In this document: positions 13,764-64,000 of the stretch, piece by piece | How positions within the stretch are numbered: the first letter of the stretch is position 1 | How the letters are laid out: the number at the start of each line of letters is the position of its first letter | NCBI GenBank assembly: GCA_045106935.1 | Contig: JBGCFN010000005.1 | Location: 17,732-81,731, forward strand | Direction: 5' to 3' | DNA from: Gammaproteobacteria bacterium | GTDB taxonomy: Bacteria; Pseudomonadota; Gammaproteobacteria; UBA4575 | DNA length: 64,000 bases | Translations under genes and position numbers: made by a program | The notes under the pieces: generated by a model | Told to the model about the DNA's origin: nothing | The model's input: the letters and a program-made list of their open reading frames with translations, nothing else | The model's database searches: none

Positions 13764-13766
13764 ATT

Positions 13767-14603: not shown

Positions 14604-14727
14604 ACACTGAATATTCTATGAGCATAAAGATGGTCGCTGAGAAAAGTGGTTATATGATTAAGATGTGGTCATTTTCTGAGTTATACTAAAATTAATTATA
14701 AGAAAATCAGTATTTAAAAGTATCTTT

Positions 14728-16581: not shown

Positions 16582-17799
16582 GTGCCAACGTTTGAATATA
16601 AAGCGACAACCGAAGATGGCAAGCTGCTATCTGGTCAGCGTGAAAGTAATGATAAGGCTTCCTTGATCTTATGGCTGCAAGAGTCAAATTATATTCCAAT
16701 TAGTGTTGAAGAAGTTAATGCCAACAGCTTAGCCGTTGGAAAATCGTTAGGTCTTCTAAAATCCAATCAACTGACAAATAACCAAGTTCTAGAAATTACT
16801 GAGCAACTGAGTACATTGATTCGCTCAAAGCTGCCACTTGATCACGCTTTGAAAATATTACAACAAATATCTGAACATAAGAATGTAAAAGAGTTAATAG
16901 GAAAATTGCTAGAGAGTGTTCAAGCGGGAAATGAATTTTCCACGGCGCTAGAAGAGCAAAAAGAATTCAGTCCATTCTATATCAATATGATTAGAGCTTC
17001 AGAAGCTAGTGGAAATCTTGATAGTGGGTTGAATCAGTTATATCGATACTTAGATAGTGCTAAGCAAATTCGTGATAAATTGAAATCCGCGTTATTGTAT
17101 CCATTGATACTATTGATAGTGGCAGGTGCATCGATCGTATTAATTCTCTTATTTGTCGTGCCTAAAATTACAGAATTATTTGTAGGCACGGATCAAGCGC
17201 TACCTATACCCACGCAAATAGTCATTGGTATGTCTAATGCGGTCATCGATTATTGGTGGATCATTCCAATCTGTATTGTCATGATTCTGTATTATTTGAA
17301 GTTTATCAGCATGTATGCGCATAGAAAGCGCCCGTGGCACAATTTGTTATTAAAGACCCCGTTAATAAAAGATTTAATCATACGCACTGAAACTGCTAAA
17401 TTTTCTAAAAGCTTGGGGACGTTGATTTCAAATGGTGTCAATATGCAAACTGCATTGCCGATTGCGAATGCTACGCTGACCAATGTTGTTTTTCATGAGA
17501 GTATGAAAGAGGCAATTGAGGAATTCAAAGAAGGTAAGTCTCTATTCGGTATTATGAGTAAAGTGAAACACTTTCCTACTTTGGCGGTCCAAATGATTAA
17601 TGTGGGTGAAGAAACAGGCGAATTAGAATCAATGCTGACGAGAGTAGGAGAGATTTATGATCGTGAAATCTCAAATGCCACTCAGCGATTTTTGGCTTTG
17701 TTAGAGCCGCTGTTAATAGTCACCTTAGGAATAATGATTGGTGGCATTATAATTTCAATTTTAATGGCGATTATCAGTGTCAATGATATACCGTTGTAA
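16582..17799 (+). CDS. gspF: T2SS inner-membrane platform protein GspF
   Basis: 405 aa with three TMs and a duplicated GspF domain. It directly follows gspE. Confidence 0.9.
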   Translation: MPTFEYKATTEDGKLLSGQRESNDKASLILWLQESNYIPISVEEVNANSLAVGKSLGLLKSNQLTNNQVLEITEQLSTLIRSKLPLDHALKILQQISEHKNVKELIGKLLESVQAGNEFSTALEEQKEFSPFYINMIRASEASGNLDSGLNQLYRYLDSAKQIRDKLKSALLYPLILLIVAGASIVLILLFVVPKITELFVGTDQALPIPTQIVIGMSNAVIDYWWIIPICIVMILYYLKFISMYAHRKRPWHNLLLKTPLIKDLIIRTETAKFSKSLGTLISNGVNMQTALPIANATLTNVVFHESMKEAIEEFKEGKSLFGIMSKVKHFPTLAVQMINVGEETGELESMLTRVGEIYDREISNATQRFLALLEPLLIVTLGIMIGGIIISILMAIISVNDIPL

Positions 17800-17822
17800 T
17801 AAAGAAAGAGGAGGATATCTCT

Positions 17823-18254
17823 ATGAAACAGAACAAGAATAATAGTAAATCGTACGGTTTTACCTTGATTGAATTATTAGTTGTACTCGTAATTTTAGGG
17901 TTACTGTCTGGATTAGTGGGGCCTAAAGTAATGAAGCATTTTGGAGAGTCCAAAGTTAAAACAGCTAAATTACAGGTGGAAGAATTAGCGTCGGCGCTTG
18001 ATATGTATAAGCTCGATACAGATAGCTACCCTACATCTAGTCAAGGTTTGCGTGCGTTGGTAGAGGAGCCGAGTAATGTCGCTGGCTGGAATGGCCCATA
18101 TTTGCGTAAAAACTTCGTGCCTAAAGATCCATGGAAACGGGAATACCAATATAAATATCCTGGTGAACATGGCGAATTTGATATTTATAGTTATGGTGCT
18201 GATAACTCTCAGGGTGGGGAAAAAGATAACCGTGACGTTGTTAGTTGGAATTAA
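17823..18254 (+). CDS. gspG: major pseudopilin GspG
   Basis: Prepilin peptidase site G/FTLIELLVVLVILGLL and a GspG-like body. Confidence 0.9.
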   Translation: MKQNKNNSKSYGFTLIELLVVLVILGLLSGLVGPKVMKHFGESKVKTAKLQVEELASALDMYKLDTDSYPTSSQGLRALVEEPSNVAGWNGPYLRKNFVPKDPWKREYQYKYPGEHGEFDIYSYGADNSQGGEKDNRDVVSWN

Positions 18255-18272
18255 TTATTTTATATCAATAAT

Positions 18273-18746
18273 GTGTCAAAATTTATTTATCCAAGAAGCA
18301 AAGGGTTTGCTAATCACTTAGGCTTTACATTAGTTGAGTTACTCGTAGTGCTAGTGATTTCGCTGTCTGTTATTAGTATTTCAACTGTTGCTTATAATAA
18401 ATTATCAACGAATGCGTATTTAAAAAGCGCTTCGCGACATGTGGCGGCTAGTCTGAGGTATGCGCGAAGTTATGCTGTGTCTCGTGGAAAAGAGGCGCAC
18501 TTGAAAATTGATTTAGTAAATAGAACGTATTCCTATACTGGCAATAGTAAGGTATTTAAATTTAAAAATAACATCGACTTGGAAGTGTATTCTGCCAAGA
18601 CATTTAATCAATCTAACAATATCGCTGAAATTAGATTTGCACCCGATGGCAGTTCATCTGGTGGACGAGTAAAGTTATCAAGTAGCAAAAAAGTCTATGT
18701 TATATATGTAGACTGGTTGACAGGTCAGGTTGGGTTTGATGGGTAG
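18273..18746 (+). CDS. gspH: minor pseudopilin GspH
   Basis: N-terminal GFTLVELLVVLVIS prepilin motif, in the pseudopilin order. Confidence 0.7.
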   Translation: MSKFIYPRSKGFANHLGFTLVELLVVLVISLSVISISTVAYNKLSTNAYLKSASRHVAASLRYARSYAVSRGKEAHLKIDLVNRTYSYTGNSKVFKFKNNIDLEVYSAKTFNQSNNIAEIRFAPDGSSSGGRVKLSSSKKVYVIYVDWLTGQVGFDG

Positions 18747-19143
18747 CTTGAATGCCTATAAAGATTCTCAACGAGGGTTTACTTTACTTGAGACTTTAGT
18801 TGCCTTGTCTGTACTGGCTATTTCTCTCGGAGTCATTTATCAGATATTTGGAACAAGCTTGCGTAACATGCAATACGCAAAGGAATATTCTTATGCGCAA
18901 TTATTTGCAGAATCTAAAATTTCAGAGCTAGGGAAGGGAATTCCTATTGCAGAAGGCACATTTGGCGGAGAAATTGATGGTAAATATGAGTGGGAAATTA
19001 GTATAGCGCCTGAATCTGCGTTGAATCATTCTGATAAGAATATTATTCATGCCTATAAAGTATTGTTTAGCATTCAATGGGATTCGTACGGTAAAGATAG
19101 GTCGATCAAAGTGCTGACTTATAAGTTAGCGGTAGAAGGGTGA
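18730..19143 (+). CDS. gspI: minor pseudopilin GspI
   Basis: RGFTLLETLVALSVLAI prepilin motif. Overlaps gspH by 17 nt. Confidence 0.7.
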   Translation: MGLMGSLNAYKDSQRGFTLLETLVALSVLAISLGVIYQIFGTSLRNMQYAKEYSYAQLFAESKISELGKGIPIAEGTFGGEIDGKYEWEISIAPESALNHSDKNIIHAYKVLFSIQWDSYGKDRSIKVLTYKLAVEG

Positions 19144-19147
19144 CGCA

Positions 19148-19774
19148 GTGAAAAATCATCGACGTCAAACTGGATTTACTTTGGTGGAGCTGATTATTGC
19201 TTTATTGATCTTAAGTTTTGTTATGGTGTTGTGTGGTAGTGGGTTTAGGTTTGGTACGCGTGTGTGGGATGCGATTAACACTACGTCTGCTCAAGTTGAT
19301 TTGCTGCAAGCATCACAAGGCTTTTTGAGAAAAAGTATTTCTCATTCCTTGATACATGAAAATTTATTTAGTGAAGAAGAGCAATATCAACAATCTCTTT
19401 TTTTAGGTGAAAGCACCAGATTGAAGTATGTGTCATATTCTCCTAAATATGGAGTGGATGATTTTTTATATAGATATGAGTTGTTTTATAATGATGCCAC
19501 CGATCATTTATCGCTTAAGTATGGCCCATATAATTTAGGAGGAATTGATAAGGATAATTCCATCACTGACATTGTAAAAAATGTCGAAGATGTAGAGATT
19601 CAATATTTTAGTGGTTATGCCCATCAAGGTGACGGAAGTGGTTGGCTTTCTAAATGGGATGACACATATTCATTGCCGCTACTGGTCAAAATTAAAGTCA
19701 CTTTTGTAGATGAAAAATTATATTGGCCAGAAATGATTATTCAAATGCGTAACGGTCCTTATGTGGTTCGTTAG
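19148..19774 (+). CDS. gspJ: minor pseudopilin GspJ
   Basis: TGFTLVELIIALLILS prepilin motif, about 208 aa. Confidence 0.7.
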   Translation: MKNHRRQTGFTLVELIIALLILSFVMVLCGSGFRFGTRVWDAINTTSAQVDLLQASQGFLRKSISHSLIHENLFSEEEQYQQSLFLGESTRLKYVSYSPKYGVDDFLYRYELFYNDATDHLSLKYGPYNLGGIDKDNSITDIVKNVEDVEIQYFSGYAHQGDGSGWLSKWDDTYSLPLLVKIKVTFVDEKLYWPEMIIQMRNGPYVVR

Positions 19775-48846: not shown

Positions 48847-50445
48847 ATGAATGCGACAAATGTAACTGGTGAAGTTGGTCAGAAAATAAATGTATGGAGA
48901 TTTACATTACGACAAATTGGCTTAGTTGTTGTTTCATTTATATTATTATATTTTCTTTTTGAGGAGGGAATATTACATGCGATTCAAAAATGGGACTCAC
49001 CCGAATATAGTCACGCATATTTAATTCCTTTCATATCTCTATTTATAATTTGGCAGAATCATTCTGAATTTATCAAGTATAGATTCAGTGGATCATGGCT
49101 GGGAGTACTCATCTTACTGGTCGGTTTATTTTTATTATTGTTGGGAGAGATGAGTACTCTCTATATTATTATAAAATATTCATTGTTGGTCGTTATATTT
49201 GGTTTGGTCTTGTCTCTGACAGGAGTTAAAAGATTTCATTATTTTCTTTTTCCAATCTTTTTATTGTTTTTCACCATACCTTTACCTAACTTCATTTATA
49301 ACAATCTATCAGCATATTTGCAGCTAATTTCATCTAGCATTGGCGTTGAAGTGATTAGATTGTTTGGAATTAGTGTCTTTTTAGAGGGTAATGTCATTGA
49401 TCTTGGAAATTATAAGCTACAGGTAGTAGAGGCTTGTAATGGACTAAGGTATTTATTCCCACTTGTCACATTGGGTGTAATAGCAGCATATTTTTATAAT
49501 GACAGCTTTTGGAAAAAATGTATTGTCGTTATTTCAACGTTACCAATTACCATTCTTATGAATAGTATACGCATAGGTGTTATCGGTATATTAGTAGAGC
49601 ATTGGGGCATTGCTATGGCTGAAGGCTTTCTGCATGATTTTGAAGGCTGGATTATCTTTATGGTGTGTTTTTCAATTTTATTAATTGAGATGTGGCTATT
49701 AACAAAATTGACAACAGGAAGATCGTTGAGAGATGTGTTAAGTATTGAAGTACCCACCAAGCTGAATATGAATAACTTTAATGTGTCTGAAAGACATATT
49801 CCTAAACCGTTTTATGTTTCTGTTTTTATATTGTTATTAATATTGTTTGCACAGTATGCATTACCAGAAAGACGGGAAAATGTACCAGAAAGAAGCCAAT
49901 TCATTGAATTTCCTGTTGATATATCTGGATGGCAGAGTACTCGCAAGTCTATGGAAGCCAAATTCATCAATGCACTTAAATTTGAAGATTATTTGCTCGC
50001 GAATTACTCCAGCAATGCTGGGGCATTAGAATTATACATTGCATATTACGAATCTCAGCGAAAAGGTGAGTCTGCACACTCACCAAGATCATGTCTTCCA
50101 GGTGCTGGCTGGAAAATTACAGATAGAGGTTTGGTTAATATTAGTTATAAAAATCATGTAAATATTGACACGCAAATACCAGTAAGTCGTATGTTGGTTC
50201 AACAAGGTGATAGTAGATACTTAATGTATTACTGGTTTAAGCAACGAAACAGGCATATCACGAATGAATATTTAGTTAAATGGTATTTATTTTTAGATGG
50301 AATAATAAAAAATAGAACTGATGGTGCATTAATTAGAATAATGTTCCCTATTGCACAGCATCAAGATATAAGTACAGCCGATGAAACAGTACAGTTATTC
50401 TTGCAAGAAACATTGCCTATTTTGCCTGAATTTGTACCAGATTAG
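48847..50445 (+). CDS. xrtA: exosortase (XrtA-like) fused to a C-terminal EpsI-family domain
   Basis: Polytopic N-terminal half with the exosortase catalytic motif VVEACNGLRYL and the Arg motif LMNSIRIG. C-terminal soluble domain with SPRSCLPGAGW (EpsI-like). Confidence 0.75.
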   Translation: MNATNVTGEVGQKINVWRFTLRQIGLVVVSFILLYFLFEEGILHAIQKWDSPEYSHAYLIPFISLFIIWQNHSEFIKYRFSGSWLGVLILLVGLFLLLLGEMSTLYIIIKYSLLVVIFGLVLSLTGVKRFHYFLFPIFLLFFTIPLPNFIYNNLSAYLQLISSSIGVEVIRLFGISVFLEGNVIDLGNYKLQVVEACNGLRYLFPLVTLGVIAAYFYNDSFWKKCIVVISTLPITILMNSIRIGVIGILVEHWGIAMAEGFLHDFEGWIIFMVCFSILLIEMWLLTKLTTGRSLRDVLSIEVPTKLNMNNFNVSERHIPKPFYVSVFILLLILFAQYALPERRENVPERSQFIEFPVDISGWQSTRKSMEAKFINALKFEDYLLANYSSNAGALELYIAYYESQRKGESAHSPRSCLPGAGWKITDRGLVNISYKNHVNIDTQIPVSRMLVQQGDSRYLMYYWFKQRNRHITNEYLVKWYLFLDGIIKNRTDGALIRIMFPIAQHQDISTADETVQLFLQETLPILPEFVPD

Positions 50446-50464
50446 CTGTTGATAGAGAATATAT

Positions 50465-52081
50465 ATGCAGTTTTATACAATATTTTTGGTGGCAATGTTC
50501 GCGGCAATTATTTTAATTCCACCACTAACTTATATCTACCAGAAATTAAATATTGTTGATTTACCTGCTGCAAGGAAAGTACATAAAAAACCTATTCCTA
50601 GAGTAGGTGGTATAGCAATTGTTGTTGCAACTATATTTCCAATCATTGCTTGGATTCAGTTGGATGCACCAATATTGGGTGTGTTAATAGGAATTGCGAT
50701 ATTATTTATTTTGGGAATTATTGATGATGCTAGGAATCTATCCTATAAGATTAAATTTATTATTCAAATCCTATCTATTTCTTTAGTGTTTATATATGGG
50801 TTTGTAGATTTGAATGCATCACATTTTGTCGCAAAAGAATTAGTCCCATATGCAGTATTGTTTACAGCCTACTTCTTATTTATTTTAGGTGTAACTAATG
50901 CGATAAATTTGTCTGATGGTTTGGATGGTCTAGCAGGTGGAGAAGCTTTATTGTCCTTTAGTGTGATTGGGTTGCTAGCGTATGAAACGAATAATAGTCT
51001 AATCATTCTTTTAGTATTAGCTATAGTTGGCGCAGTCTTTGGTTTTCTAAGGTTTAATACTTATCCAGCAAAAATATTTATGGGTGATACGGGCAGCTTG
51101 TTTTTGGGGTTTGTCCTAGGCTTGCTTAGCGTTGCTTTGACATATCGTGTTGACAATGCATATGCAAAAATGTTGCCGCTATTGTTGGTGGGACTGCCAG
51201 TGTTAGACACGTTAATGGTAATGATAATTAGATTGTATCATGGAAAATCTCCTTTTAATGCTGACCGAAATCATTTGCATCATCGTCTTTTAGATCATGG
51301 TTTTGCACATTATCAAAGTGTATTAATTATTTATCTTATACAAAGTATATTTGTATTAACTGCGTATTTCATGCGTTATGACACAGAAGTAAATGTGTTA
51401 ATAGCATTTACGATTATTTCAATTTTGGCAATATCGATAAGTTATGCAACTACTAAAGACAATAAGCCAATACTAAGTAATAGTATCGTTAATAAAATTT
51501 TTAATATATCTAGAGACATTGTAAATATTCATACTGAAAAATTGTTTTCTATTCTTGGGGTATTGTTATTGCTGTATACATTAACGGCATCGTTTGCTGT
51601 TGATAAATTCGATAAAGATATATTACTTTTATTATTGGTCATTAGTGTTATAGGTATGATTGGGTTAATTCTGTTAAGAGAAAAGCCTTGTCATTGGATA
51701 GAAAGAGTTGCCATTCATGTGATGATTGTGCTGTCTATATACTTTGGTGTTGGCGTCAATCAAGGAAATATAATGGATGTATTTCAGATTGGCATACTGC
51801 TGGTAAGCGTGGTCATTATTGTTCTGTTATTTTTAGGTGAAGGAAGAAAAAAATTCATTGGTTCGCCATTGGATTTTTTATTAATAGCAACTGCTATTGT
51901 GATACCGAATTTACCAAATTCACCAATAGCTAATCATGGGCTAAGTCTGTTAATACTAAAGTTAGTCGTGCTTTTCTATTGTGTGGAATATGTTTTGTTT
52001 AACGTGACTAGTCATTGGTGGGTAATTCGTTTGACTTTGATAATTGGTGCTTTTGTACCAATTATTTTAAATTATATATAG
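50465..52081 (+). CDS. WecA/MraY-family polyprenyl-phosphate sugar-1-phosphate transferase (GT4) with roughly 200-aa extra C-terminal TM region
   Basis: DDxxN (IIDDARNL), NAINLSDGLDGLAGG and KIFMGDTGSLFLGF motifs. Confidence 0.7.
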   Translation: MQFYTIFLVAMFAAIILIPPLTYIYQKLNIVDLPAARKVHKKPIPRVGGIAIVVATIFPIIAWIQLDAPILGVLIGIAILFILGIIDDARNLSYKIKFIIQILSISLVFIYGFVDLNASHFVAKELVPYAVLFTAYFLFILGVTNAINLSDGLDGLAGGEALLSFSVIGLLAYETNNSLIILLVLAIVGAVFGFLRFNTYPAKIFMGDTGSLFLGFVLGLLSVALTYRVDNAYAKMLPLLLVGLPVLDTLMVMIIRLYHGKSPFNADRNHLHHRLLDHGFAHYQSVLIIYLIQSIFVLTAYFMRYDTEVNVLIAFTIISILAISISYATTKDNKPILSNSIVNKIFNISRDIVNIHTEKLFSILGVLLLLYTLTASFAVDKFDKDILLLLLVISVIGMIGLILLREKPCHWIERVAIHVMIVLSIYFGVGVNQGNIMDVFQIGILLVSVVIIVLLFLGEGRKKFIGSPLDFLLIATAIVIPNLPNSPIANHGLSLLILKLVVLFYCVEYVLFNVTSHWWVIRLTLIIGAFVPIILNYI

Positions 52082-52103
52082 CTAAAATTAATATTTTATT
52101 TCA

Positions 52104-54506
52104 GTGTTACTGAAGGAGTTTGTTGTGAGTAAGTTTTTAATTGTTACATTGTGCGCTGTTTTAGTCATTAGTGGATGTGGTGGAGCTGAGTCAAGGAAAG
52201 AAAAATACATTCAAAGTGGTAATCAACACTATATACAAGATGATTGTAATAAAGCCAAATTAGACTATAAAAATGCACTGCAAATTGATCCAAAAAGTGT
52301 AGATGGGCTTATTGGGTTGGCTAGATGTATGCTAGAAGAGAAAGAGTGGCGTAAAGGATATCAATTGTTAAATGGTGCGTTAGAGCATGACCCTACATCT
52401 GTTGATGCCAAATTGGATTTGGCAAAACTATATTTAATATCAGGTGAAAGTGATAAATCTTATCAATTGATAGAAGAGATATTAACTGCTGAATCTAATA
52501 ATTCTACAGCAATTGCATTAAGAGGTATTTTTCACTTGAAAAATAATACGCTTTCTGCAGCAAGAACTGACTCTGAAATTGCTATTAACCTCGAAGCAGA
52601 TAACTTATCAGCGATTACTTTGTTTTCATCTCTTAAAGTTAAAGATGGAAAGACAGACCAGGCTGCAACGTATATCAGTGATATTGTTAATAATAAAGAA
52701 ATTACTAAGCGTAAAAAGAAAGAGCTACAAGTAATACTAATTGCGTTATACGACCAGCTTAAAGATATTGACAGTGTTATAGATATTTATAAGGATTTAA
52801 TTACACAGTATCCTGATAATTACAGTTATATTTATAGATTATCAGCTATCTATGCTAACAATGATGAAGTTGATCAGGCTGAAGAATTATTATTGACGAG
52901 TATTGATTCTGATGACAGCGATAGTCAGTTAGCCTATATTTCTTTTCTAGATGCTTATAGATCATCTGGTGATGCAACTAAAAAACTAGAAGAGTTTAGT
53001 GCGCAATCTAACAATGGCAAGTTAAAGCTTGCGCTTGGTAAACGCTATCTTGCGAGCAATGAAGAAGAGAAGGCGATATCAGTTTTTACTGACTTGGCCG
53101 GTAAGATAACAATTGTAGAGCATAATGAGGCTAAAAATGAACTAGCATTTTTGCATTTAAAAAATGGTAAATCTGATTTAGCGTTAGAATTAGTCCAGCA
53201 AGTATTATCTGATCAACCAAACAATCTAAGAGCACTAGTCATACGTGGCACATTGGCTATATCTGAGCGTGATGCACCTCAGGCAGTATCGGATTTTAGG
53301 ACGATTTTGCGTGATCAACCTAATAATATTTTTGCTATTAGACAGCTAGCTACAGCATATATATTAAATGACCAAGAAGATTTGGCTAAAGAGTTGTTGC
53401 AGAAAGCTGTCAACATTGATAGTCATGATAAGGCATTAGGCTTGTTGTATGCGCGTCTTCAGGGTAAGGATAATGAATTTGAATCTGCAATTAATACTGT
53501 TAATGAGCTGTTAGAGTCTAATGAAGAAGATCTAGAAACAATTAAAACATTATTTGATTTGCAGATTGCTAACAAAGACTTTGAGGGGGCTAAACATACT
53601 GCTGCAACTATGAAAGCATCGTTGAAAGATAATCCGTTAGGGTATTATCTTTCTGGAGTGTTGTTGCAGAATGAAAACAACAATCTAGCTGCAGAAAAAG
53701 AGTATTTAACTGCACTAGATAAAGAACCGCGTGCAAATGAACCATTATCAGGGTTGGTTAGATTGTATTTGTCTGAAGGTAAGCCTAATAAAGCAATTGA
53801 TCTATTAAATGACATTGTTAGCAAAGATCCTGAGTATTTGGTGCCTTACAATCTTTTAGGTGAGGTAGGTATTAGTATAGAAAATTATTCTTTAGCTGAA
53901 GATAGTTTTAATACTGCAATCAAACTCAATAAACAATGGTGGGTTCCGTATCGAGGTCTTTCCTTAGTACATTCAGCTAAAGGCAATAAAGAAAAATCAA
54001 TTCAAGTGTTACAACGTGGATTTGATAATGGTGTTGGCATTGAACGATTAGGGCTTGAATTAGCGTTAAATCAATATCAGCTAGGTGATAGATCTTCGGC
54101 AATTAATACTTATGAGAAAATTATCTCTGAAATTCCAACGTCCGCATTAGCAAAAAATAATTTATCAATGATTTTGGTTGACGATCAAGCAAATGATCAA
54201 GATATAAATAATGCACTTAATCTTATTGCTGATCTTGAAAAAATTAATGATGCAGCTTCATTAGACACTGTTGGTTGGGTCTACTACCGAGCTGGAAAAT
54301 TTAATCAAGCAATTGAATATTTAGCTAGGGCTGTTGAATTAGCACCGAATGCAGCTGAACTTCATTATCATTTGGGGATGGCCTATGCTGAAGATGGTAA
54401 TAGTCCTGAAAAAGCTAAGCAACATTTGAAGATAGCTGCTGAATCTGAACAAAGTTATGTAGGTAAAGACGTAGCTATTGCTAAGTTTAAACAACTGTCG
54501 CTTTAA
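52104..54506 (+). CDS. PEP-CTERM-system-type TPR-repeat lipoprotein
   Basis: Lipobox LVISGC and about 800 aa of TPR-like repeats. Its context after the exosortase matches the PrsT-like family. Confidence 0.65.
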   Translation: MLLKEFVVSKFLIVTLCAVLVISGCGGAESRKEKYIQSGNQHYIQDDCNKAKLDYKNALQIDPKSVDGLIGLARCMLEEKEWRKGYQLLNGALEHDPTSVDAKLDLAKLYLISGESDKSYQLIEEILTAESNNSTAIALRGIFHLKNNTLSAARTDSEIAINLEADNLSAITLFSSLKVKDGKTDQAATYISDIVNNKEITKRKKKELQVILIALYDQLKDIDSVIDIYKDLITQYPDNYSYIYRLSAIYANNDEVDQAEELLLTSIDSDDSDSQLAYISFLDAYRSSGDATKKLEEFSAQSNNGKLKLALGKRYLASNEEEKAISVFTDLAGKITIVEHNEAKNELAFLHLKNGKSDLALELVQQVLSDQPNNLRALVIRGTLAISERDAPQAVSDFRTILRDQPNNIFAIRQLATAYILNDQEDLAKELLQKAVNIDSHDKALGLLYARLQGKDNEFESAINTVNELLESNEEDLETIKTLFDLQIANKDFEGAKHTAATMKASLKDNPLGYYLSGVLLQNENNNLAAEKEYLTALDKEPRANEPLSGLVRLYLSEGKPNKAIDLLNDIVSKDPEYLVPYNLLGEVGISIENYSLAEDSFNTAIKLNKQWWVPYRGLSLVHSAKGNKEKSIQVLQRGFDNGVGIERLGLELALNQYQLGDRSSAINTYEKIISEIPTSALAKNNLSMILVDDQANDQDINNALNLIADLEKINDAASLDTVGWVYYRAGKFNQAIEYLARAVELAPNAAELHYHLGMAYAEDGNSPEKAKQHLKIAAESEQSYVGKDVAIAKFKQLSL

Positions 54507-55678: not shown

Positions 55679-56131
55679 TTATCCGCCACAGCCACCGATT
55701 GTCACTTTGATGCTTTTAGAAGCAGTAAAGTGTTGATTATCAGATGTAGATACTAGCGCGATAATGTTTGATGATTTGGCCATTTTTACTCGTGTAGAGA
55801 CGTAAGCTTCAATCTTCGGATTGATATCATAGGATGATGTTAAAGGGCTAGGGTTGTTATCGACTAAAATAGATATCATATTGACGTTGTCGATTGTTGT
55901 GTTAACTGTAATTGGAACCACAGCTCAATTTTCAGCAATTTCTGGTGCCTTGATATGGATTGCATCACTGGCATTTGCTGTTTGATTACTAGTCAATTTG
56001 CTGATTAGGTCATCAACATTTGCATGGTCAAATAACTCTTTTTGCCAGTCAGCAAAAGCAAAATTAACTCCACTGAAAAGAGGGAGGGCTAATAAGGTGC
56101 TTGTATTTTTTAGAAATGTTCTTTTAAGCAT
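55679..56131 (-). pseudogene. soxY: soxY interrupted by an in-frame TGA at 55925-55927 (conserved Gly codon position). Could be a nonsense mutation, a read-through or a sequencing error.
   Basis: ORFs 55925..56131 and 55679..55921 are in the same frame. Joined they read ...IHIKAPEIAEN*AVVPITVN...KVTIGGCGG. The Tat-like signal, the APEIAEN(G)AVVP motif and the C-terminal GGCGG are SoxY hallmarks. Confidence 0.6.
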
Positions 56132-56139
56132 AGTAATAC

Positions 56140-56478
56140 CTATAGAGCGTGTATAAAGTCAACGACTTGATCTATTTCTTCTTCTGTTAATATGCGATGT
56201 TTACCAAATGGCGGCATCACTGTAATAGGGTTAAATTGGGTTTCGTCCCAGATTCTTTGTCGTAATAGAGATTTATCTGGATAACGCTGCTTCATGTTTA
56301 TAAGCGCAGGACCAATATTTCCCGGGCTTTCTCCACCCTCTATTGCATGACATGCTAGACAATTACCTTTAGTTCTATCAAATGCTAATTGCTTGCCATC
56401 AGCGTATGAAATTGAGCTTATTGCTGCAAATATGCAGATAATTAAAATGTTACATTTTGTTTTAGCTAGATTGAGCAT
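56140..56478 (-). CDS. soxX: SoxX-like monohaem cytochrome c
   Basis: Signal peptide and GNCLACH haem motif, 112 aa, directly upstream of soxY. Confidence 0.6.
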   Translation of the reverse strand: MLNLAKTKCNILIICIFAAISSISYADGKQLAFDRTKGNCLACHAIEGGESPGNIGPALINMKQRYPDKSLLRQRIWDETQFNPITVMPPFGKHRILTEEEIDQVVDFIHAL

Positions 56479-56713
56479 AATTCCAAGCTAATTGTAAAAA
56501 CTGTCTGGAGGGCTTTAATTTTATTTACTGACAGTATGATAGCGTGACTCTGAACGTCTATCTACTAGTTTGGTGGTATCGGTAGCTGCTGATTGTTTAT
56601 TTAGAGATTTTAGTATTTTATTAAAAATCTCATTGGTCTGCGTACGAATTTTATTTTTCATATTATCCTCAAGACTGTAACGGCAGTCTCAGGAATATGT
56701 TGATGGATGATTA

Positions 56714-59305
56714 CTATTTAGTGTGATATTGATCAGCAATTCTATAATTGAGTTCCCTTAACTTGTTGTTATTTAAGGTAATATTGAGGCTTTCTATAGG
56801 CCTTAGTTTGTCAGAATAATTGACCAATGCAGGTGCGTTTAGGTCTATCTCATTAAAGGCTATAAATATCACTGGATGACCGTGCCATTCATGTGGAATC
56901 GTCCATTGTTCATACATGCTGGCAGTTCTGCCTACGGCGTTCCTAGATAAAATATTATCAACTTGCTTGTCAACGTCGTAAAAACGTAAGGAGCTTGCGA
57001 TTGACCATTTGCTCAAACCAACAATGAGTGGTTTTTGACCGGTTTCATTCTCTAGTTGTTTCTCTAGCATGTCTAATTCGTATGCTGTTTGTTGCCAAAA
57101 ATAATGGTTTGTGACTTGAGTATTTATATTTATTGGTAGCCCTAAAGCTGCGTAGTGGAGTATTGCACCATAAATTAAACCTAGAATGGCTGTCGACAGC
57201 AAAGTTAATTTTGTAAATAACTTCTTGTTTGTAAAATTTGAAGTCGGGCTTAAGGCAAATGATATTAATGGAATGGCAATTAACCAGATTGGTGCAGTCC
57301 AATGGAATCGAGGGTAATGAGTGAAACTAAAATACACATATACCAATAAGGGTATGAATGTAAATATGACAAAAAACTGTTTGTAAGTTTTGATGGTTGA
57401 TTTGTTTTGGATTTTATCCTGCAGTAGAGAAGTTATGTTTCTATACGCATTAATGATGAATAATAATATTAATGGAGAGAGAAGAATCATTAAATGAAGT
57501 AATAAGTAATGAGTCGAAAATTCTATAGTTCGATCCAATCGGCGAGTGGTTTGAAATAAAAATGAGCTCCATTCATTTTGTGCATTCCAATAGAGAGTAG
57601 GTGAAAATATCAATAGAGAAATTACTCCAGCAATATATAAAATAGGTTGCTTCCACCATTGTCTGGTTGCTTGATTAACGCTTATAAAAATAATAATGCT
57701 AATTGCAAACAGCGCGATTGAGTACTTTGAAAGCATTCCGATTCCTATACAAATGCCTAAGCTCAGCCAGGAACCGGCCGACTTTTCGAATGTAATCTTT
57801 GCAATAAAGTATAAACATGCAGCCCATATAGCTATTTGTAGTGCATCAGTTGTCGCCAAAAACCCAGTGACTGCTGCAAATGGAATAACGGAAGTCAGTA
57901 TGAGAGAAATATATGCAGAGGTCTTATCAAAGAGCATTGAGCTGAGACGAAATACAAAATATAAAGTGACTATTCCACTAATATATGAAAAAAATCTCAC
58001 ACCAAATTCATTGTCACCAAATACGCTTGTTGCAAGCCATATCAACCAAGCGACCATAGGTGGATGATCTAAGTAGCCTAAGCTTAAATGCTCTTTATAA
58101 TTCCAGTAATATGCTTCATCAGGTATTAATTCAGTTGTGCCTAAGTATAAAAAGCGCAATATCAACATAAAGCCGGTAATTGCAATAGCTAATACTCGCC
58201 AATTGATAGAGCTATATTTAAAGCTATTAGAAGTATTTGCAGGAAATACAATAAATGAGGCAGCAAAATAGTTTACTAAAGCTGCTGCAATAATGGCGGG
58301 ATAAATAGCAAAACCAGGACTGAAATTTAATAAATTGATCAGAATAGCGAGAACTCCGCCACGGATAGTCAGTGCAATCAAGCCAAAGTAAATATACTTT
58401 ATTGCTTTACTCAGCCAGCTATTAAATGAGTTATGTATGTATTTAAATGACCAAATTGAGTTTAAAATATAGTTGAAGGTAGCAGCAATAAAAAAACTGC
58501 TGATATGAGCGCTAGCAATGCTCCATCCTTTACCTAAGAATAATTGGAAGAATAATGCATCTATTACTACACCTAGAATACCAACCATCATAAAACGGCC
58601 AGTAGTAGAACCGCTAACTCTTCCACCGCTTAATTCAATCAAGCGCTGAAAATATTGAATGAGTTGTTTGCCTGAAAGTTTAGACTCACCAAGCACTCGA
58701 TCTGTAAATACAATAGGTGTTTCAGTGACTCGAAATTTGTCTAAGCCTGATGCAAGTAACTCCAATAGTACTTTATAGCCTCTAGCATTTTGGTCAATAT
58801 CGGAAAAACAGGTTTTTTTACAAGCAAAAAAACCTGATGTAGTATCTTTTACATCAGTCAGGACTCTTGCAGGTAATCCACCAAACCATGATAAGAATCG
58901 TCTGTGTGCTGGCCAGTTAGCGATGCCGCCATTTTTGGTGTAGCGACTACCCACGACGACATCATGAGTACCGTTAATGATTGGCTTGAGTAAATCTGGT
59001 ATGCAATCTATGGGATGGCTTAAGTCAGCATCCATTACTAAGATATACTCAGAATGACTAGTTGCTACTCCATCTAAGATGGCTTGTGTTAAATCTGGAT
59101 GGCCCGTGCGTTGCAGTACTGATATCCAGTTGAAACGCTGGCTCCAAGCATTAATTTTTTCTATCGTATTGTCTTTAGACTGGTCATCGACAAACAAAAT
59201 TTCAAGATCGCAATTCTCAATTTTAAGTTGAGTCAACCCTTCTAGAAGCGGGTCAATATTATCCTGTTCATTCAGCGTGGGAATGACTATTGTAGCACTG
59301 CTCAT
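56714..59305 (-). CDS. three-module glycosylation fusion: N-terminal GT2 polyprenyl-phosphate sugar synthase (DPM1/ArnC/GtrB-like), GtrA-like TM segment, and a large GT-C (PMT/ArnT-like, GT39/83-type) membrane glycosyltransferase
   Basis: IVIPTLNEQDNI...VDDQSKDNT...VMDADLSHP (GT2 DxD). GtrA-like FMMVGILGVVIDALFFQLFL. GT-C signature ELIPDEAYYWNYKEHLSLGYLDHPPMVAWLIW followed by about 10 TMs. 863 aa. Confidence 0.65.
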   Translation of the reverse strand: MSSATIVIPTLNEQDNIDPLLEGLTQLKIENCDLEILFVDDQSKDNTIEKINAWSQRFNWISVLQRTGHPDLTQAILDGVATSHSEYILVMDADLSHPIDCIPDLLKPIINGTHDVVVGSRYTKNGGIANWPAHRRFLSWFGGLPARVLTDVKDTTSGFFACKKTCFSDIDQNARGYKVLLELLASGLDKFRVTETPIVFTDRVLGESKLSGKQLIQYFQRLIELSGGRVSGSTTGRFMMVGILGVVIDALFFQLFLGKGWSIASAHISSFFIAATFNYILNSIWSFKYIHNSFNSWLSKAIKYIYFGLIALTIRGGVLAILINLLNFSPGFAIYPAIIAAALVNYFAASFIVFPANTSNSFKYSSINWRVLAIAITGFMLILRFLYLGTTELIPDEAYYWNYKEHLSLGYLDHPPMVAWLIWLATSVFGDNEFGVRFFSYISGIVTLYFVFRLSSMLFDKTSAYISLILTSVIPFAAVTGFLATTDALQIAIWAACLYFIAKITFEKSAGSWLSLGICIGIGMLSKYSIALFAISIIIFISVNQATRQWWKQPILYIAGVISLLIFSPTLYWNAQNEWSSFLFQTTRRLDRTIEFSTHYLLLHLMILLSPLILLFIINAYRNITSLLQDKIQNKSTIKTYKQFFVIFTFIPLLVYVYFSFTHYPRFHWTAPIWLIAIPLISFALSPTSNFTNKKLFTKLTLLSTAILGLIYGAILHYAALGLPININTQVTNHYFWQQTAYELDMLEKQLENETGQKPLIVGLSKWSIASSLRFYDVDKQVDNILSRNAVGRTASMYEQWTIPHEWHGHPVIFIAFNEIDLNAPALVNYSDKLRPIESLNITLNNNKLRELNYRIADQYHTK

Positions 59306-59334
59306 TGATTCTTATGTGAAGTGTAGAATGGCGT

Positions 59335-61008
59335 TTATTTGATATAAATATTGGAGAAATGATACCAGAAATCTGAGTTGTATACGTCTGGCTTACGATG
59401 GATCCTGCAATGAAAGCCGATGCTTAGTTCTTCCCATGATTTATGGTCTTTAATCGCTTGCCATAACAAAGTAGCCCTTACTTTTATCAGTAACTGGCGG
59501 TGGTCTGATGATGCTGAATCGTATTCTGATTGAATGTCTCGATGACTCATTATTTTAGTTTTAGCCTGTTGGCTAAAATCAACAGTAAGCCCTTTGTCTA
59601 ATGGGGTAAAGTCAGACGTACATGGGATTATATAAACGACTAAATCATCTTGAAATTGACTTGCTGAAAAATAGTCTTTTGTAGCCTTGAAGAATGACTC
59701 TTCCTTGGGAATGCTTTCACTATCTATGTATTTGCTAATTTCTTCTTTAGTAATGATGGGACGATTTATATTGCTTGATAATGTGGTTATTGAAGTGCCA
59801 ATTGATATTTTATCGGTGATGGTAGGATTAATTGTCATGACGCTAGGGTATAAACGATTCACTTCTTCTTCTATATCTTCTAGTGAATTTTTATTATTAT
59901 TATTTTTTATATACTCATCTCTAGGCGCTGCTTCAGAAAAATAGCCTGCATAGGGCATATATGATTTTGGTTTGCAGATGTCTATATATTTATAGATCGA
60001 ATTTTTAACTGAAAGAAGTCTGTTTTCTGAAATTTTTGATTTCTCATTTTCATCGTAATGATCAAAGCACCAAGGATGGCTAGAAGCACCGCCAGCAAAA
60101 GAGGTGGCTAAGAAATCAATATCTGTTGGAAGCACATAGTGATTGAGTGCTGAGGAGTCTACTGTGATAAGCGCTTGTTTTTTTCCATAGCAAAGATATA
60201 AGCCGCTATCATCCCTGAAATCTCCAGATTTTAAAATTGATATATAAATTTCATTTTCATCTAGTTTGTGAATCTGATTGAAGGCTAGTGGAATAACGTT
60301 AGTGAAGCCTAGATTTCTTAGTGGCGTTTCTGCTGATTTTGTTTTGAATTTGGGAATAACAATTGGTATGTCAGGACGATGCTGTATAAGTTTTATTAGT
60401 GTTTCTTCATGCATGTGATCTGGATGGTTGTGAGAGATATAGACAAGATCTGCATTAAATAGTTGATCGAGTGCGTCGCTGCACGGGGCTGGATCGTGCC
60501 ACCATCCATTTAGAAAACATGGGCCATGTATCCATGGGTCTGTGATGATATTGATTGTGTCGCAATTAAATAGAAGGCTAGCATGCGATAAAAAACGGAT
60601 ATTTAGATCAAGTGCTTGTTGTTGTGAAGTAATATTTTCAGGTAATTGCAAGTGAGTCTTTGGTTGATGGATAACAACCTGGTTGTTTGTCACCTCAAAT
60701 TCAAGTTTTTCTTTAGTAACATTTACATTGTTATATTTGAGTTTTTCTAAATCAAGCTTCCAACCATGAAGTGGGCATTCTGCTAATTTTTCATCTTGAC
60801 ATGGCTGTAATGTGCCACTGGCATGGTCGCATATACGTGAGATTACCCAGTCGACTTGTTTCTCTTTAGATAGTTTAAGAATATGTTTGTCTTGATAGTT
60901 TATTCCTGGTGTTAAGTTATCGAGATCATAATGATAATGGCTATGATTTTTATCATCTATACACGAAAACGATCCAGCTAAACGCAATTTTATTTTTAAT
61001 TTTCCCAT
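59335..61008 (-). CDS. Rieske [2Fe-2S] plus metallo-beta-lactamase-fold protein, CMP-N-acetylneuraminate hydroxylase (CMAH)-like
   Basis: Rieske motif CDHASG-x13-CPLHGWKLDLEKLKY; compare animal CMAH CKHQGG...CTKHNWKLD. It is followed by an MBL-fold region with YISHNHPDHMHEE (HxHxDH). 557 aa. Confidence 0.6.
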   Translation of the reverse strand: MGKLKIKLRLAGSFSCIDDKNHSHYHYDLDNLTPGINYQDKHILKLSKEKQVDWVISRICDHASGTLQPCQDEKLAECPLHGWKLDLEKLKYNNVNVTKEKLEFEVTNNQVVIHQPKTHLQLPENITSQQQALDLNIRFLSHASLLFNCDTINIITDPWIHGPCFLNGWWHDPAPCSDALDQLFNADLVYISHNHPDHMHEETLIKLIQHRPDIPIVIPKFKTKSAETPLRNLGFTNVIPLAFNQIHKLDENEIYISILKSGDFRDDSGLYLCYGKKQALITVDSSALNHYVLPTDIDFLATSFAGGASSHPWCFDHYDENEKSKISENRLLSVKNSIYKYIDICKPKSYMPYAGYFSEAAPRDEYIKNNNNKNSLEDIEEEVNRLYPSVMTINPTITDKISIGTSITTLSSNINRPIITKEEISKYIDSESIPKEESFFKATKDYFSASQFQDDLVVYIIPCTSDFTPLDKGLTVDFSQQAKTKIMSHRDIQSEYDSASSDHRQLLIKVRATLLWQAIKDHKSWEELSIGFHCRIHRKPDVYNSDFWYHFSNIYIK

Positions 61009-61037
61009 TGATATATTGGATTTGTGTAGTGCTTGAT

Positions 61038-62393
61038 TTAGTTGTGTAACTTAAATATATCTTTTGATATGGAGGATATATTTACATCGTTAAAACGGCC
61101 AGTAATATTTTGAAGGCGAGTGACTCGCTCTTGGATATAATCAATACTGATTGGTGGGAATCTATGCTTGTGATAGGCAGTACTATTGCGATGTGATGAA
61201 TTTTTGCTTTTAACTTTTTTCACCAACGTACGAGTGTTGTTATGTATTATGCTTGGTAAGCGAGCTAAGGACCCACGATGTGTGTGTGCGCTTGTAATAT
61301 ATTGTTGAAATAAGGTGTTAGTGATTATATCTGATGCTAAATCACCCTCTTGGCTACTAATATGTTCTGATAGCACGGGGCAGTGGCCTTTTGGTTTGGT
61401 ATCGCTTGTAAGCGTTGTTTGAATTTTGTCGAGTAAGGATTGACTGCTAGTGGCTATGTCACACAATGCTTTAGGTAAACTATCATCTATTTTTTCGTTA
61501 GAGATAGGGTAATAACCAAGTGTTGGTTTATCTAATATTGTTGCTTCAATTGAAGTTGTGCATCCATTTGAAATTAATGCCTTTGATCCCATTATCCAAG
61601 GAATCACATTACCTTCATTGACTACTTTGATATTTTTATTGTCACTGAATATTTGTTGCCAGTTATTAATATTTTCTGAAGGGTGTGGTCTGACAATTAT
61701 ATTAATTGATGGAAATGTATCAGCTATTAAAGGAATAATTTTTTTAAATTCATTGAATAGTATTTGTTTATGTTTGAATCTATCTGCAATAAAGTTGTCA
61801 TTTGAGTTTCCACTAAAATTTTTGTCTCTATTGGCTTCACCAATACCTACGCTAGAAATAAAATGATTTACCTGCCCAAAATTTGTATTGATTAGAATGT
61901 AGTCACCATATTGATTGATAATTTTTTCTGTTTCAGGATTAAAGTAACCTCGTAATTCAGGTCTAATAATATCGATTCTTGGGTTGCCTGTGATATGAAT
62001 GGGCTGGTTATTGTAGGCGGAATAATTTTGAAATACCTGTGCATCATTTTTCCCCCATGCAAATAAGTGATCAATATAATCAAATGCGACTGGAGATAAT
62101 CTATGTCTATAATATTGATCGTCAGGCAATCTCACTAAGCCTTCTTCATCCCATGCGGTAATTCTATGGCCTAGGCCGTGCATGATCTTGAACATTCTGA
62201 TGCTGAATCTTCTCATGCTTTTAGCAAGGTAGACGGCATTATAAACTTTCGATGAATGATGATGGATGTATGCTCGTGACCCGATAATCGAGTTAAAGCC
62301 TTTTTCTGCAGCTGTACAAGCAAGAAGTATTTTGCCGTCTAGCTCACGTACCTGACTCTCAACAGGAATTAGTAAAGTATCAAATGTACTCAT
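61038..62393 (-). CDS. putative ulosonic-acid transferase of the capsule-synthesis (KpsS/KpsC-like, HP-motif) family
   Basis: IIVRPHPSE (HP motif) and ALISNGCTTSIEATILDKP. It sits between the cytidylyltransferase and the CMAH-like gene. Family assignment is tentative. Confidence 0.35.
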   Translation of the reverse strand: MSTFDTLLIPVESQVRELDGKILLACTAAEKGFNSIIGSRAYIHHHSSKVYNAVYLAKSMRRFSIRMFKIMHGLGHRITAWDEEGLVRLPDDQYYRHRLSPVAFDYIDHLFAWGKNDAQVFQNYSAYNNQPIHITGNPRIDIIRPELRGYFNPETEKIINQYGDYILINTNFGQVNHFISSVGIGEANRDKNFSGNSNDNFIADRFKHKQILFNEFKKIIPLIADTFPSINIIVRPHPSENINNWQQIFSDNKNIKVVNEGNVIPWIMGSKALISNGCTTSIEATILDKPTLGYYPISNEKIDDSLPKALCDIATSSQSLLDKIQTTLTSDTKPKGHCPVLSEHISSQEGDLASDIITNTLFQQYITSAHTHRGSLARLPSIIHNNTRTLVKKVKSKNSSHRNSTAYHKHRFPPISIDYIQERVTRLQNITGRFNDVNISSISKDIFKLHN

Positions 62394-62395
62394 TA

Positions 62396-63109
62396 CTATT
62401 TATGTAGCTCTTCGAGTAAAACTTCGGCAAGCTTTAAATCAATTTCTTCATCAATATTGACTACAGGGCGTTCAATTATGAGAGGAATGCACTGCTTCTC
62501 CATTAAGTTATTTTGATCAATCAAGCTTTCTCGTGTGGTGGCATAACAAATGCCATTGCGATGGTAATAATCAGGTATCTGTTGGCGTATAGAATATTGA
62601 ATTCCACCTTCTAAGTAGGGGTTGATAAAGCCGTTGTCCGAAAGTTGTAATGTTTTATGTGGTGTGTAATGTCCGGGGGTTTTGCTGACAGTTGCGACGG
62701 TGAAGGCGTTTTTTTCTATTAGTAAACTTACAGCATTTGTAATATCTTCTGGTGTTCTCATTGGGCTGGTTGGTTCAAGTAACACTGAAATATCAAATTT
62801 TTTATTGTAATAATCTTCACTATATAACCACGCATGTTTCCACATATCAATTGACTTCGCATGGTCGGTCGATAATTCTTTGGGACGTGTGAATGGGACA
62901 TCAATATTTTCATTGCGAGCATGAGTGCATATTTCAGCATCATCCGAGCTTAGGACAATTTCATCTATCCAGTTTAGTTGTTTAACACAGTTTGCTGCAT
63001 GGGCAATTAAAGAATTGCCATGAATGTTACGTAAATTTTTGCGTATTATTCCTTTGCTTCCACCGCGTGCTGGAATGACAGCAAGAATGTTTTTGTTCTT
63101 GAATGACAT
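62396..63109 (-). CDS. CMP-N-acylneuraminate / ulosonic acid cytidylyltransferase (NeuA/KdsB-like, CTP_transf_3)
   Basis: ILAVIPARGGSKGIIRKNL...IVLSSDD, 237 aa. Confidence 0.8.
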   Translation of the reverse strand: MSFKNKNILAVIPARGGSKGIIRKNLRNIHGNSLIAHAANCVKQLNWIDEIVLSSDDAEICTHARNENIDVPFTRPKELSTDHAKSIDMWKHAWLYSEDYYNKKFDISVLLEPTSPMRTPEDITNAVSLLIEKNAFTVATVSKTPGHYTPHKTLQLSDNGFINPYLEGGIQYSIRQQIPDYYHRNGICYATTRESLIDQNNLMEKQCIPLIIERPVVNIDEEIDLKLAEVLLEELHK

Positions 63110-63128
63110 GTTTTTCTAAGGATAGCGG

Positions 63129-63926
63129 TTAGCGTTTTTCAGCAAGAATTGAGAAACCAACAGGAAATTTAGTATGTTCTCGAACTAAATTGTCTGTGAA
63201 TTTTTCATCCCATTCTTTGAGTTGTGGCCAATGTTCTTCATAAAACCATTTCTCAGATTTTTTACGCTGTTCTGCCGGCATATATTCTAATGCTTGAAGC
63301 CAACAATAACCTATCGCGCTGAAAGGGCCGCCATCTAACTGAGTATCAATTGGTTCTAGGCCAACAGAGCGCATAATTTCATACATGCCATAAGGTGTAT
63401 AGCGTAGGTAATCATCTGGTATTTGGTGTAGTTCTCTTAAGGTCGGTTCAAATACAAATACTTTGCCGTTTGGTTTGGTGATTCTTGCCATTTCGCTAAA
63501 TAAATCATGCTGGTTGGCAATATGATGAACTAAGTTAGGCACCAGGACCAAGTCTGCAATATTATCTTCTAGACCTGTATTTTCGATTGGTGCACGTTTT
63601 GTGATCGGCACGCGTAAAAAATTCTTGTCTATCACTTTGTCTTTATTGTAAGCCCCACGATCATCGGCACTTTTTGGGCTGCTATCAATCGAGATAAATT
63701 CTTGTTGGTGGAAATATGGGCCGACCAAACTCAGTCCTCCATATAAGAGTCCACGTTCTAGTGAAACAACTGTTGATTCAGGTGCTATTTCTTGTGCTAG
63801 CTTTCTAATTTCACGCAACAATAAGTCAAAGTGTGGTAAACGATCAGTAATGAAGACCTTCTCCGCAAGGACTTGAGTATGCTTGGCTAGCTGATCGTTT
63901 GAGTAGTTCATAGGCTTATTGTACAA
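63129..63926 (-). CDS. class I SAM-dependent methyltransferase
   Basis: DLVLVPNLVHHI...ITKPNGKVFVFEP pattern of a Methyltransf_11/23-like fold. It is the first visible gene of the minus-strand operon, which continues beyond 64000. Confidence 0.5.
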   Translation of the reverse strand: MYNKPMNYSNDQLAKHTQVLAEKVFITDRLPHFDLLLREIRKLAQEIAPESTVVSLERGLLYGGLSLVGPYFHQQEFISIDSSPKSADDRGAYNKDKVIDKNFLRVPITKRAPIENTGLEDNIADLVLVPNLVHHIANQHDLFSEMARITKPNGKVFVFEPTLRELHQIPDDYLRYTPYGMYEIMRSVGLEPIDTQLDGGPFSAIGYCWLQALEYMPAEQRKKSEKWFYEEHWPQLKEWDEKFTDNLVREHTKFPVGFSILAEKR

Positions 63927-64000
63927 GAAAAATATGTGCTGATACCTGTTTAATTTTAATTGAGGAACGAGTATTAAGGACAGAAGAAAACCTATCTATT

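Follow-up and report, generated by a model that had tools for sequence, protein, structure and literature searches.

The window analysed here is a stretch of 64,000 nucleotides of gammaproteobacterial DNA, and close to its right-hand end, on the minus strand, lies a gene for a homologue of CMP-N-acetylneuraminate hydroxylase (CMAH), the animal enzyme whose substrate is the nucleotide sugar CMP-N-acetylneuraminic acid (CMP-Neu5Ac). The open reading frame (59335–61008) is intact, runs for 557 codons and is separated from the gene on each side by a gap of 29 nt. The gene and the domains of its product are arranged as follows:

59335–61008, minus strand: CMAH-family protein, predicted CMP-N-acetylneuraminate hydroxylase; 557 aa, ATG start, stop codon at 59335–59337
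60646–60987, minus strand: N-terminal Rieske [2Fe-2S] domain, approximately aa 8–121, with the ligands C60, H62, C78 and H81 at 60766–60831
60064–60606, minus strand: metallo-beta-lactamase (MBL)-fold catalytic domain, approximately aa 135–315, with H193-N-H195-P-D197-H198 at 60415–60432 and D267 and D284 invariant
59338–60051, minus strand: CMAH-specific C-terminal region, approximately aa 320–557, with R511, R535, R538, P540, Y543, F547 and W548 invariant

The initial annotation of this DNA had attributed to the protein the Rieske plus MBL architecture of animal CMAH, and this attribution is borne out by several observations. In a Pfam scan the MBL fold (PF13483) scores 32.9 bits against a cut-off of 24, whereas the Rieske domain is sub-threshold (17.5 bits versus 20.3); an NCBIfam scan holds no model specific to the protein. 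Across 45 homologues (36–78% identity) neither the four Rieske ligands nor the HxHxDH motif varies, and the AlphaFold2 model built from these homologues (predicted local distance difference test 90.5, predicted template modelling score 0.87) shows the Rieske, MBL and C-terminal domains. Inspection of the translation reveals neither a signal peptide nor a membrane segment. There is no CMAH structure in the PDB, and the only solved sequence relatives found there are CmlA and FrsH, which match the MBL core alone.

An exact-sequence lookup returned no record identical to the window protein, and a protein 96% identical to it (P0001) was used in its place. The number of word-indexed homologues is 578; many of them carry the label 'CMP-N-acetylneuraminate monooxygenase' in JGI/IMG, while Pfam and NCBI mostly call the homologues 'MBL fold metallo-hydrolase'.

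Kinship with the animal hydroxylases

The named CMAH proteins were retrieved with a mouse CMAH sequence that served as bait only, and all the comparisons described here were made on the retrieved proteins. BLASTP aligns the window protein with the CMAH of Sarcophilus (P0137) at 29% identity (E 2e-61) and with that of Lepisosteus (P0197) at 30% identity (E 3e-65). The alignments span approximately residues 32–552 of the query, and the overall identity is 29–31% across some 520–550 collinear residues, with the Rieske, MBL and C-terminal domains in identical order. The resemblance of the Rieske motif to that of animal CMAH, which was noted at the outset, is visible in the translation and is aligned by BLASTP: ICDHASGT...ECPLHGWKLDL pairs with MCKHQGGL...RCTKHNWKLDV of a named CMAH. 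The initial annotation had allowed that the similarity might stop at this motif; it extends over the full length, and takes in the MBL motif and a C-terminal block, IGF..R..R.PD.Y..FW.HF, that is also common to the window protein and animal CMAH.

An alignment of 11 bacterial and seven animal sequences contains 55 invariant columns. These include the Rieske ligands (C60, H62, C78 and H81), H193-x-H195-x-D197-H198, D157-P-W, D267 and D284, as well as the C-terminal R511, R535, R538, P540, Y543, F547 and W548. In an exhaustive HMMER search of 1.84 billion cluster representatives just 156 reach E<=1e-30, and an animal CMAH representative (P0229, 199 bits) falls within that match list; as delimited by this search, the CMAH family is small and takes in the animal enzymes. 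Judged by these alignments, the bacterial protein of the window truly belongs to the CMAH family, and its redox and metal motifs are intact.

The likeness to the animal system reaches beyond the protein, given that genes for the supply of CMP-Neu5Ac are encoded beside the window gene. There are also differences: the window protein is bacterial and operon-encoded, it has no cytochrome b5 or b5 reductase nearby, and the 'LPLTPPxW' tail at the C-terminus of the animal enzymes is missing from it.

The 557-aa protein is a new member of a family that is already known. Prokaryotic CMAH-like sequences were surveyed between 2015 and 2018 (Simakov 2015; Peri 2018, PMC5767959, with approximately 60 prokaryotes) and noted by Angata (2018, PMC6288428). 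The surveys deal with the same family but record sequence presence only; the window gene comes with a context, namely a minimal NeuC-NeuB-NeuA operon that includes two candidate sialyltransferases and lies within a sphingolipid locus. The view that the bacterial homologues are functionally uncharacterised stands, but as sequences they are not undescribed: they have been surveyed and are named in IMG.

The sialic-acid cassette and its natural variants

The genes around the CMAH-like gene are transcribed from the same strand, in the order methyltransferase, NeuA-like, TIGR04396 protein, CMAH-like and GT2-GtrA-PMT_2 fusion. From the edge of the window inwards the neighbours are:

63916–64000, minus strand: TIGR04396 paralogue a, last 27 codons and stop, cut by the window edge; the translation ends ...IKQVSAHIFLVQ*
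63129–63926, minus strand: S-adenosylmethionine (SAM)-dependent methyltransferase (Methyltransf_11, Pfam), candidate sugar O-methylase, present in the cassette of all relatives
62396–63109, minus strand: NeuA-like CMP-sialic acid synthetase (PF02348, 58 bits)
61038–62393, minus strand: TIGR04396 'surface carbohydrate biosynthesis' protein, paralogue b, candidate sialyl- or nonulosonic acid (NulO) transferase (TIGR04396, 365 bits, cut-off 125)
56714–59305, minus strand: GT2-GtrA-PMT_2 (GT-C) triple fusion, 863 aa (Pfam), directly downstream of the CMAH-like gene

This order agrees with the earlier description as regards the NeuA-like and methyltransferase neighbours and the downstream glycosyltransferase (GT) fusion, but the transferase that had been placed on the opposite side of the CMAH-like gene lies upstream, on the NeuA side. 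Its identification as a KpsS-like protein has to be abandoned: the product of 61038–62393 gives no match to Capsule_synth (PF05159), the KpsS/KpsC-type family, even at E<=5, and belongs instead to TIGR04396. For the NeuA-like protein the top solved relatives are CMP-Neu5Ac synthetases (6ifd, 108 bits; 1eyr, 95 bits). Scans of 56000–64000 gave promoter counts at shuffle level and a slight excess of terminator-like sites, none of them at gene boundaries; these scans say nothing on the limits of the operon.

The genes that lie beyond position 64000 can be read from a close relative, the metagenomic contig ERZ28496113 ctg28562 (L001, 81 kb), which is 97.6% identical to the window and collinear with it from 49336 to its last base, 64000. 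The last 27 codons of the window (63916–63999) are identical to the upstream TIGR04396 gene of this contig. The order toward the window is fatty acyl-AMP ligase, short-chain dehydrogenase/reductase (SDR), acyl carrier protein (ACP), serine palmitoyltransferase (SPT), NeuB-like, NeuC, phospholipase D (PLD)-like and TIGR04396 paralogue a, with the following assignments on the relative contig:

fatty acyl-AMP ligase: 771 bits (cut-off 600)
SPT: NF047599, 600 bits (cut-off 500)
NeuB-like synthase: TIGR03569, 319 bits, below cut-off
NeuC, UDP-GlcNAc 2-epimerase: TIGR03568, 395 bits (cut-off 236)
4667–5698 of L001: PLD-superfamily protein with two PLDc_2 stretches, a fixed member of the cassette

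An ulosonic-acid synthase past 64000, whose absence would have told against the initial annotation, is present in this relative, which carries both a NeuB-family synthase and NeuC, in one tightly spaced operon with the NeuA-like gene; the top solved relative of the NeuB-like protein is NeuB of Neisseria meningitidis (174 bits), followed by PseI (146). The PLD-like protein might perform a phosphotransfer step that joins the glycan to a lipid. Taken together, the window and its relative define an eight-gene cassette, composed of NeuB, NeuC, PLD-like, TIGR04396, methyltransferase, NeuA, TIGR04396 and, as its last gene, CMAH. A 383-aa GNAT-like protein and an FA_hydroxylase are transcribed divergently from the SPT and neu gene set.

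The two TIGR04396 paralogues score 362–365 bits on their model (362 for paralogue a of L001), and both match the BFO_1060 family weakly (73–75 bits, under its cut-off of 200); no solved relatives were found for them. The motifs DEE(G/A) and RPHP are kept in both paralogues across ten genomes, and D/E-D/E-G and HP motif types are known from bacterial sialyltransferases (PMC5420450). They are also shared with the NulO transferases of Tannerella forsythia (BFO_1060/Tanf_01245), which are genetically validated pseudaminic acid (Pse) and legionaminic acid (Leg) transferases and from which the window pair differs in scoring below the family cut-off and in belonging to TIGR04396. From these motifs, the TIGR04396 proteins are reasonable sialyltransferase candidates.

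The conservation of the cassette was evaluated in nine species representatives of Gammaproteobacteria/Thiotrichales (L002–L010), in which the CMAH homologue is 56–79% identical to that of the window. By tblastn the full 12-gene order, from the SDR to the GT fusion, is present in L002–L006 and L008–L010, and L007, which is interrupted by a contig end, retains the order over the part covered. Other relatives depart from this arrangement in three ways. In a widespread marine relative whose SPT is 72% identical, the flanks are unchanged but SPT is followed directly by the GT2-GtrA-PMT_2 fusion, and the whole block of eight genes, NeuB through CMAH, is absent. In L084 (SPT 76%) the cassette is present and an unrelated gene of 277 aa (18768–19601) occupies the CMAH slot; comparison ruled out that this gene is a CMAH remnant, and it has no NCBIfam or precomputed Pfam match. 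In L085 (SPT 65%) the site (11233–16382) holds a GT2, a 2-oxoglutarate (2OG)-Fe(II) oxygenase-like gene and a 783-aa Elm1-like protein, without a sialic-acid cassette, ahead of a GT2-GtrA-PMT_2 fusion at 16765–19350. Given these variants, the stretch that separates spt from the conserved flanking GT-C fusion behaves as a variable glycan island, in which CMAH resembles an optional tailoring gene of the cassette.

More distant CMAH homologues occur in Helicobacter, SAR11, Prochlorococcus, Bradyrhizobium, Pannonibacter, Chitinophagaceae and others; homologues of Helicobacter, Bacteroidota, Alphaproteobacteria and cyanobacteria had been listed in the earlier surveys too. A NeuB-family gene lies within 10 kb in 13 of approximately 65 such loci, nearly all of which have NeuC and NeuA homologues as well, and a Pfam scan of eight of these NeuB loci found NeuB and Epimerase_2 eight times each and CTP_transf_3 and methyltransferases seven times each. 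The gastric Helicobacter species with homologues (H. cynogastricus, H. baculiformis, H. cetorum and H. bizzozeronii; L049, L050, L069 and L076) live in animal hosts, and those of abundant marine oligotrophs come from Prochlorococcus (L044) and Pelagibacteraceae (L029, L047, L053, L060 and L065). The CMAH homologues of these Helicobacter, Prochlorococcus and Pelagibacteraceae show 31–44% identity, and no NeuB homologue was found within 10 kb of them at the sensitivity used.

The predicted hydroxylation and its alternatives

What the enzyme does has to be weighed against the chemistry of its characterised relatives. Besides CMAH, the known Rieske plus MBL enzymes include mycobacterial NamH, which makes N-glycolyl-muramic acid and is the only characterised bacterial analogue. 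NamH reportedly acts on UDP-MurNAc. Both characterised enzymes convert an N-acetyl into an N-glycolyl group, and for this reason the same chemistry is favoured here. The likeness to NamH is one of architecture (Rieske plus UlaG-like MBL) and chemistry; plasmid-borne actinobacterial Rieske/MBL proteins, used as stand-ins and not NamH itself, show 22–24% identity over 41–51% of the query, a plasmid tblastn gave only remote MBL or Rieske matches, and there are no mur genes or peptidoglycan context near the CMAH-like gene in the window and the relative contig.

The window enzyme probably hydroxylates CMP-Neu5Ac to CMP-N-glycolylneuraminic acid (CMP-Neu5Gc) with the help of a housekeeping electron donor, and the TIGR04396 enzymes would transfer the product. 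We infer the substrate, product, electron donor and acceptor as follows. NeuC would convert UDP-GlcNAc into N-acetylmannosamine, NeuB would convert this into Neu5Ac and the NeuA-like protein would activate it to CMP-Neu5Ac, all of them encoded in cis. In the cytoplasm, the Rieske centre (C60, H62, C78 and H81) of the three-domain oxygenase would receive electrons from a donor encoded outside the operon and pass them to a non-haem iron in the MBL domain (H193, H195, D197, H198, D266/D267 and D284), where O2 would be activated and the N-acetyl methyl group hydroxylated to N-glycolyl. One or both TIGR04396 transferases would then install the sugar from CMP-Neu5Gc on a cell-envelope glycoconjugate, and the adjacent methyltransferase possibly O-methylates it. 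Up to two genes away from CMAH homologues, no family is more frequent than the SAM methyltransferases (10 of 150 neighbours; L011–L067), and these are not close homologues of the window methyltransferase; the glycolyl group might be O-methylated once hydroxylation has formed it. The locus that has the cassette and lacks CMAH (L084) fits an optional tailoring enzyme of this kind.

Mouse CMAH depends on cytochrome b5 and b5 reductase. A natural fusion of CMAH with Cyt-b5 and NAD_binding_1 reductase domains (P0473, 892 aa) agrees with this dependence and provides independent genomic support for that electron path.

A number of observations weigh against the proposed hydroxylation of CMP-Neu5Ac. 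The activity of any bacterial CMAH homologue is not known (PMC5767959, PMC6288428). The identity to animal CMAH is no higher than 29–31%, the window protein ranks approximately 97th of 263 family members by similarity to the marsupial enzyme, and the His of the 'DG(I/V)HPE(L/M)D' motif of animal CMAH is replaced by Phe264 in the bacterial proteins, so that the iron site may differ. The upstream neuB and neuC genes come from the 97.6%-identical relative, not from the window itself, and both NeuB and NeuA score under their equivalog cut-offs. As for the electrons, a search of the operon, as distinct from the whole genome, found no gene for a ferredoxin, b5 or reductase, and no electron-donor gene is enriched among the neighbours of 37 distant homologues.

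Some of these points would also suit a different substrate for the same N-acetyl to N-glycolyl chemistry: a CMP-nonulosonate other than CMP-Neu5Ac, CMP-Leg5Ac7Ac for instance, or a methylated intermediate, or Neu5Ac that the transferases have already placed on the glycoconjugate. Besides the sub-threshold scores of NeuB and NeuA, which also count for it, NeuC/NeuB-type enzymes serve legionaminic acid pathways as well, a Polysacc_synt_2-type gene is present in six of the eight distant NeuB loci that were scanned, and a possible N-glycolyl-Leg has been reported in T. forsythia UB4 (PMC5378307); some of the distant homologues may act on Leg-type sugars. The prominence of SAM methyltransferases among the neighbours of the family also counts for it. 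This alternative is nevertheless rather unlikely for the window enzyme. The conserved cassette contains none of the DegT-type aminotransferase or hexapeptide-acetyltransferase genes of the Leg and Pse pathways, nor any other N-acetyltransferase gene, and the one SDR present forms part of the sphingolipid set, being kept in relatives without the cassette. Furthermore, NeuB and NeuA both have Neu5Ac enzymes as their top solved relatives, and a protein that lacks a signal peptide and a membrane segment fits a cytoplasmic nucleotide-sugar substrate. The initial annotation had left a choice between a CMP-nonulosonic and a Kdo-like substrate. The former agrees with the presence of NeuC, NeuB and NeuA in the operon; the latter is unlikely because of these same genes and because 3-deoxy-D-manno-oct-2-ulosonic acid (Kdo) has no N-acetyl group.

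The surroundings of the gene and its solved relatives bring to mind a different role, that of a lipid or carrier-protein hydroxylase of the sphingolipid pathway acting, as CmlA and FrsH do, on a tethered substrate (an ACP-bound acyl or amino-acyl group) or on a long-chain base. The ACP, fatty acyl-AMP ligase and SPT genes share the operon with the CMAH-like gene, and CmlA and FrsH are the top solved sequence relatives of its product. These two are non-haem diiron beta-hydroxylases without a Rieske domain that act on carrier-protein-tethered amino acids, and they match only approximately aa 186–315; CmlA aligns over the MBL core at E 1e-6, while CMAH aligns over the whole length at E 1e-61, and the N-terminus of the window protein is a Rieske domain rather than the CmlA-type domain. 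What disfavours this role is that the CMAH gene keeps company with the Neu genes rather than with spt: relatives that have SPT, ACP and fatty acyl-AMP ligase without the cassette have no CMAH gene, and distant homologues accompany NeuB, NeuC and NeuA in loci without SPT. The sphingolipid set, moreover, already holds an FA_hydroxylase gene of its own. Such a hydroxylase is very unlikely, and still less credible is an MBL-fold hydrolase without oxygenase activity, or a relic that has lost catalysis. The name given to most homologues and the sub-threshold Rieske score would agree with that description, but the invariance of the Rieske ligands and of HxHxDH in 45 homologues is the pattern of a functional redox enzyme, and the reading frame is intact and full-length in many species.

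The locus makes microbial Neu5Gc directly testable, and with it the notion that Neu5Gc is a deuterostome-only 'signature of self'. As of 2018 Neu5Gc had not been demonstrated on any microbe and the CMAH-like sequences of microbes were functionally uninvestigated (PMC6288428), an N-glycolyl NulO in bacteria was termed undescribed in 2017 (PMC5378307), and our literature search found no later report of microbial Neu5Gc or of a characterised bacterial CMAH. No cleaner test case has been available until now than this minimal NeuC-NeuB-NeuA pathway, which shares one operon with a CMAH homologue and two candidate transferases and has a hydroxylase-free natural variant. From a soluble bacterial CMAH the family might obtain its first structure and mechanism, and such a protein could serve as a practical catalyst for CMP-Neu5Gc; environmental bacteria that make Neu5Gc, if they exist, would bear on the sources of this human xeno-antigen.

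The ceramide-locus setting and the flanking genes

The proteobacterial ceramide gene set consists of AasR, AcpR, Spt, a dehydrogenase and an N-acyltransferase (PMC11324152; also PMC11087976). All five gene types are present and clustered here (L081), the SDR and GNAT being assigned by family type alone. In Caulobacter, genes that decorate ceramide cluster with spt (PMC11324152), and ceramide is completed in the periplasm (PMC11087976); this clustering and the periplasmic completion make a periplasmic GT-C step on a sphingolipid plausible. In the triple fusion downstream of the CMAH-like gene, the GT2 part is a polyprenyl-phosphate sugar synthase, GtrA is flippase-like and the PMT_2/ArnT-like part is a GT-C transferase. 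Fusions of this type also lie at 11264–13879 of L082 and at 16765–19350 of L085. As one polypeptide, the fusion might provide a whole periplasmic glycosylation system for a sphingolipid or lipid A, and it could equally modify lipid A or another acceptor.

A literature search found no sialic-acid cassette within a ceramide-synthesis locus and no report of an operon with spt and neuB, and the ceramide-locus setting of the cassette is probably new. This position suggests head groups of a new class for bacterial glycosphingolipids. A tentative and rather doubtful extension of this idea is that the cassette builds a ganglioside analogue, that is, a ceramide glycolipid with Neu5Gc, maybe O-methylated and maybe made di- or oligosialyl by the two TIGR04396 transferases, with the hypervariable glycan island as the site of its assembly genes; the link between cassette and lipid is one of position alone, within one clade. 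Were it true, free-living marine sulfur oxidisers would be the first microbes with Neu5Gc and the first bacteria with a sialylated sphingolipid.

Beyond the GT fusion, after a gap of 235 nt, come soxX, Y, Z and A, and the source of the window is a marine sulfur-oxidising bacterium. The soxY gene (approximately 55679–56131, minus strand) has an in-frame TGA at 55924–55926 where the 97.6%-identical relative has GGA (Gly); this single G-to-T difference may reflect a nonsense mutation or a sequencing error, while recoding is improbable. Adjoining the sox genes, 48847–54506 (plus strand) encodes an exosortase EpsH-EpsI fusion, a WecA-like GT4 phosphotransferase and an 800-aa tetratricopeptide repeat protein, and looks like an exopolysaccharide locus of the PEP-CTERM/exosortase type.

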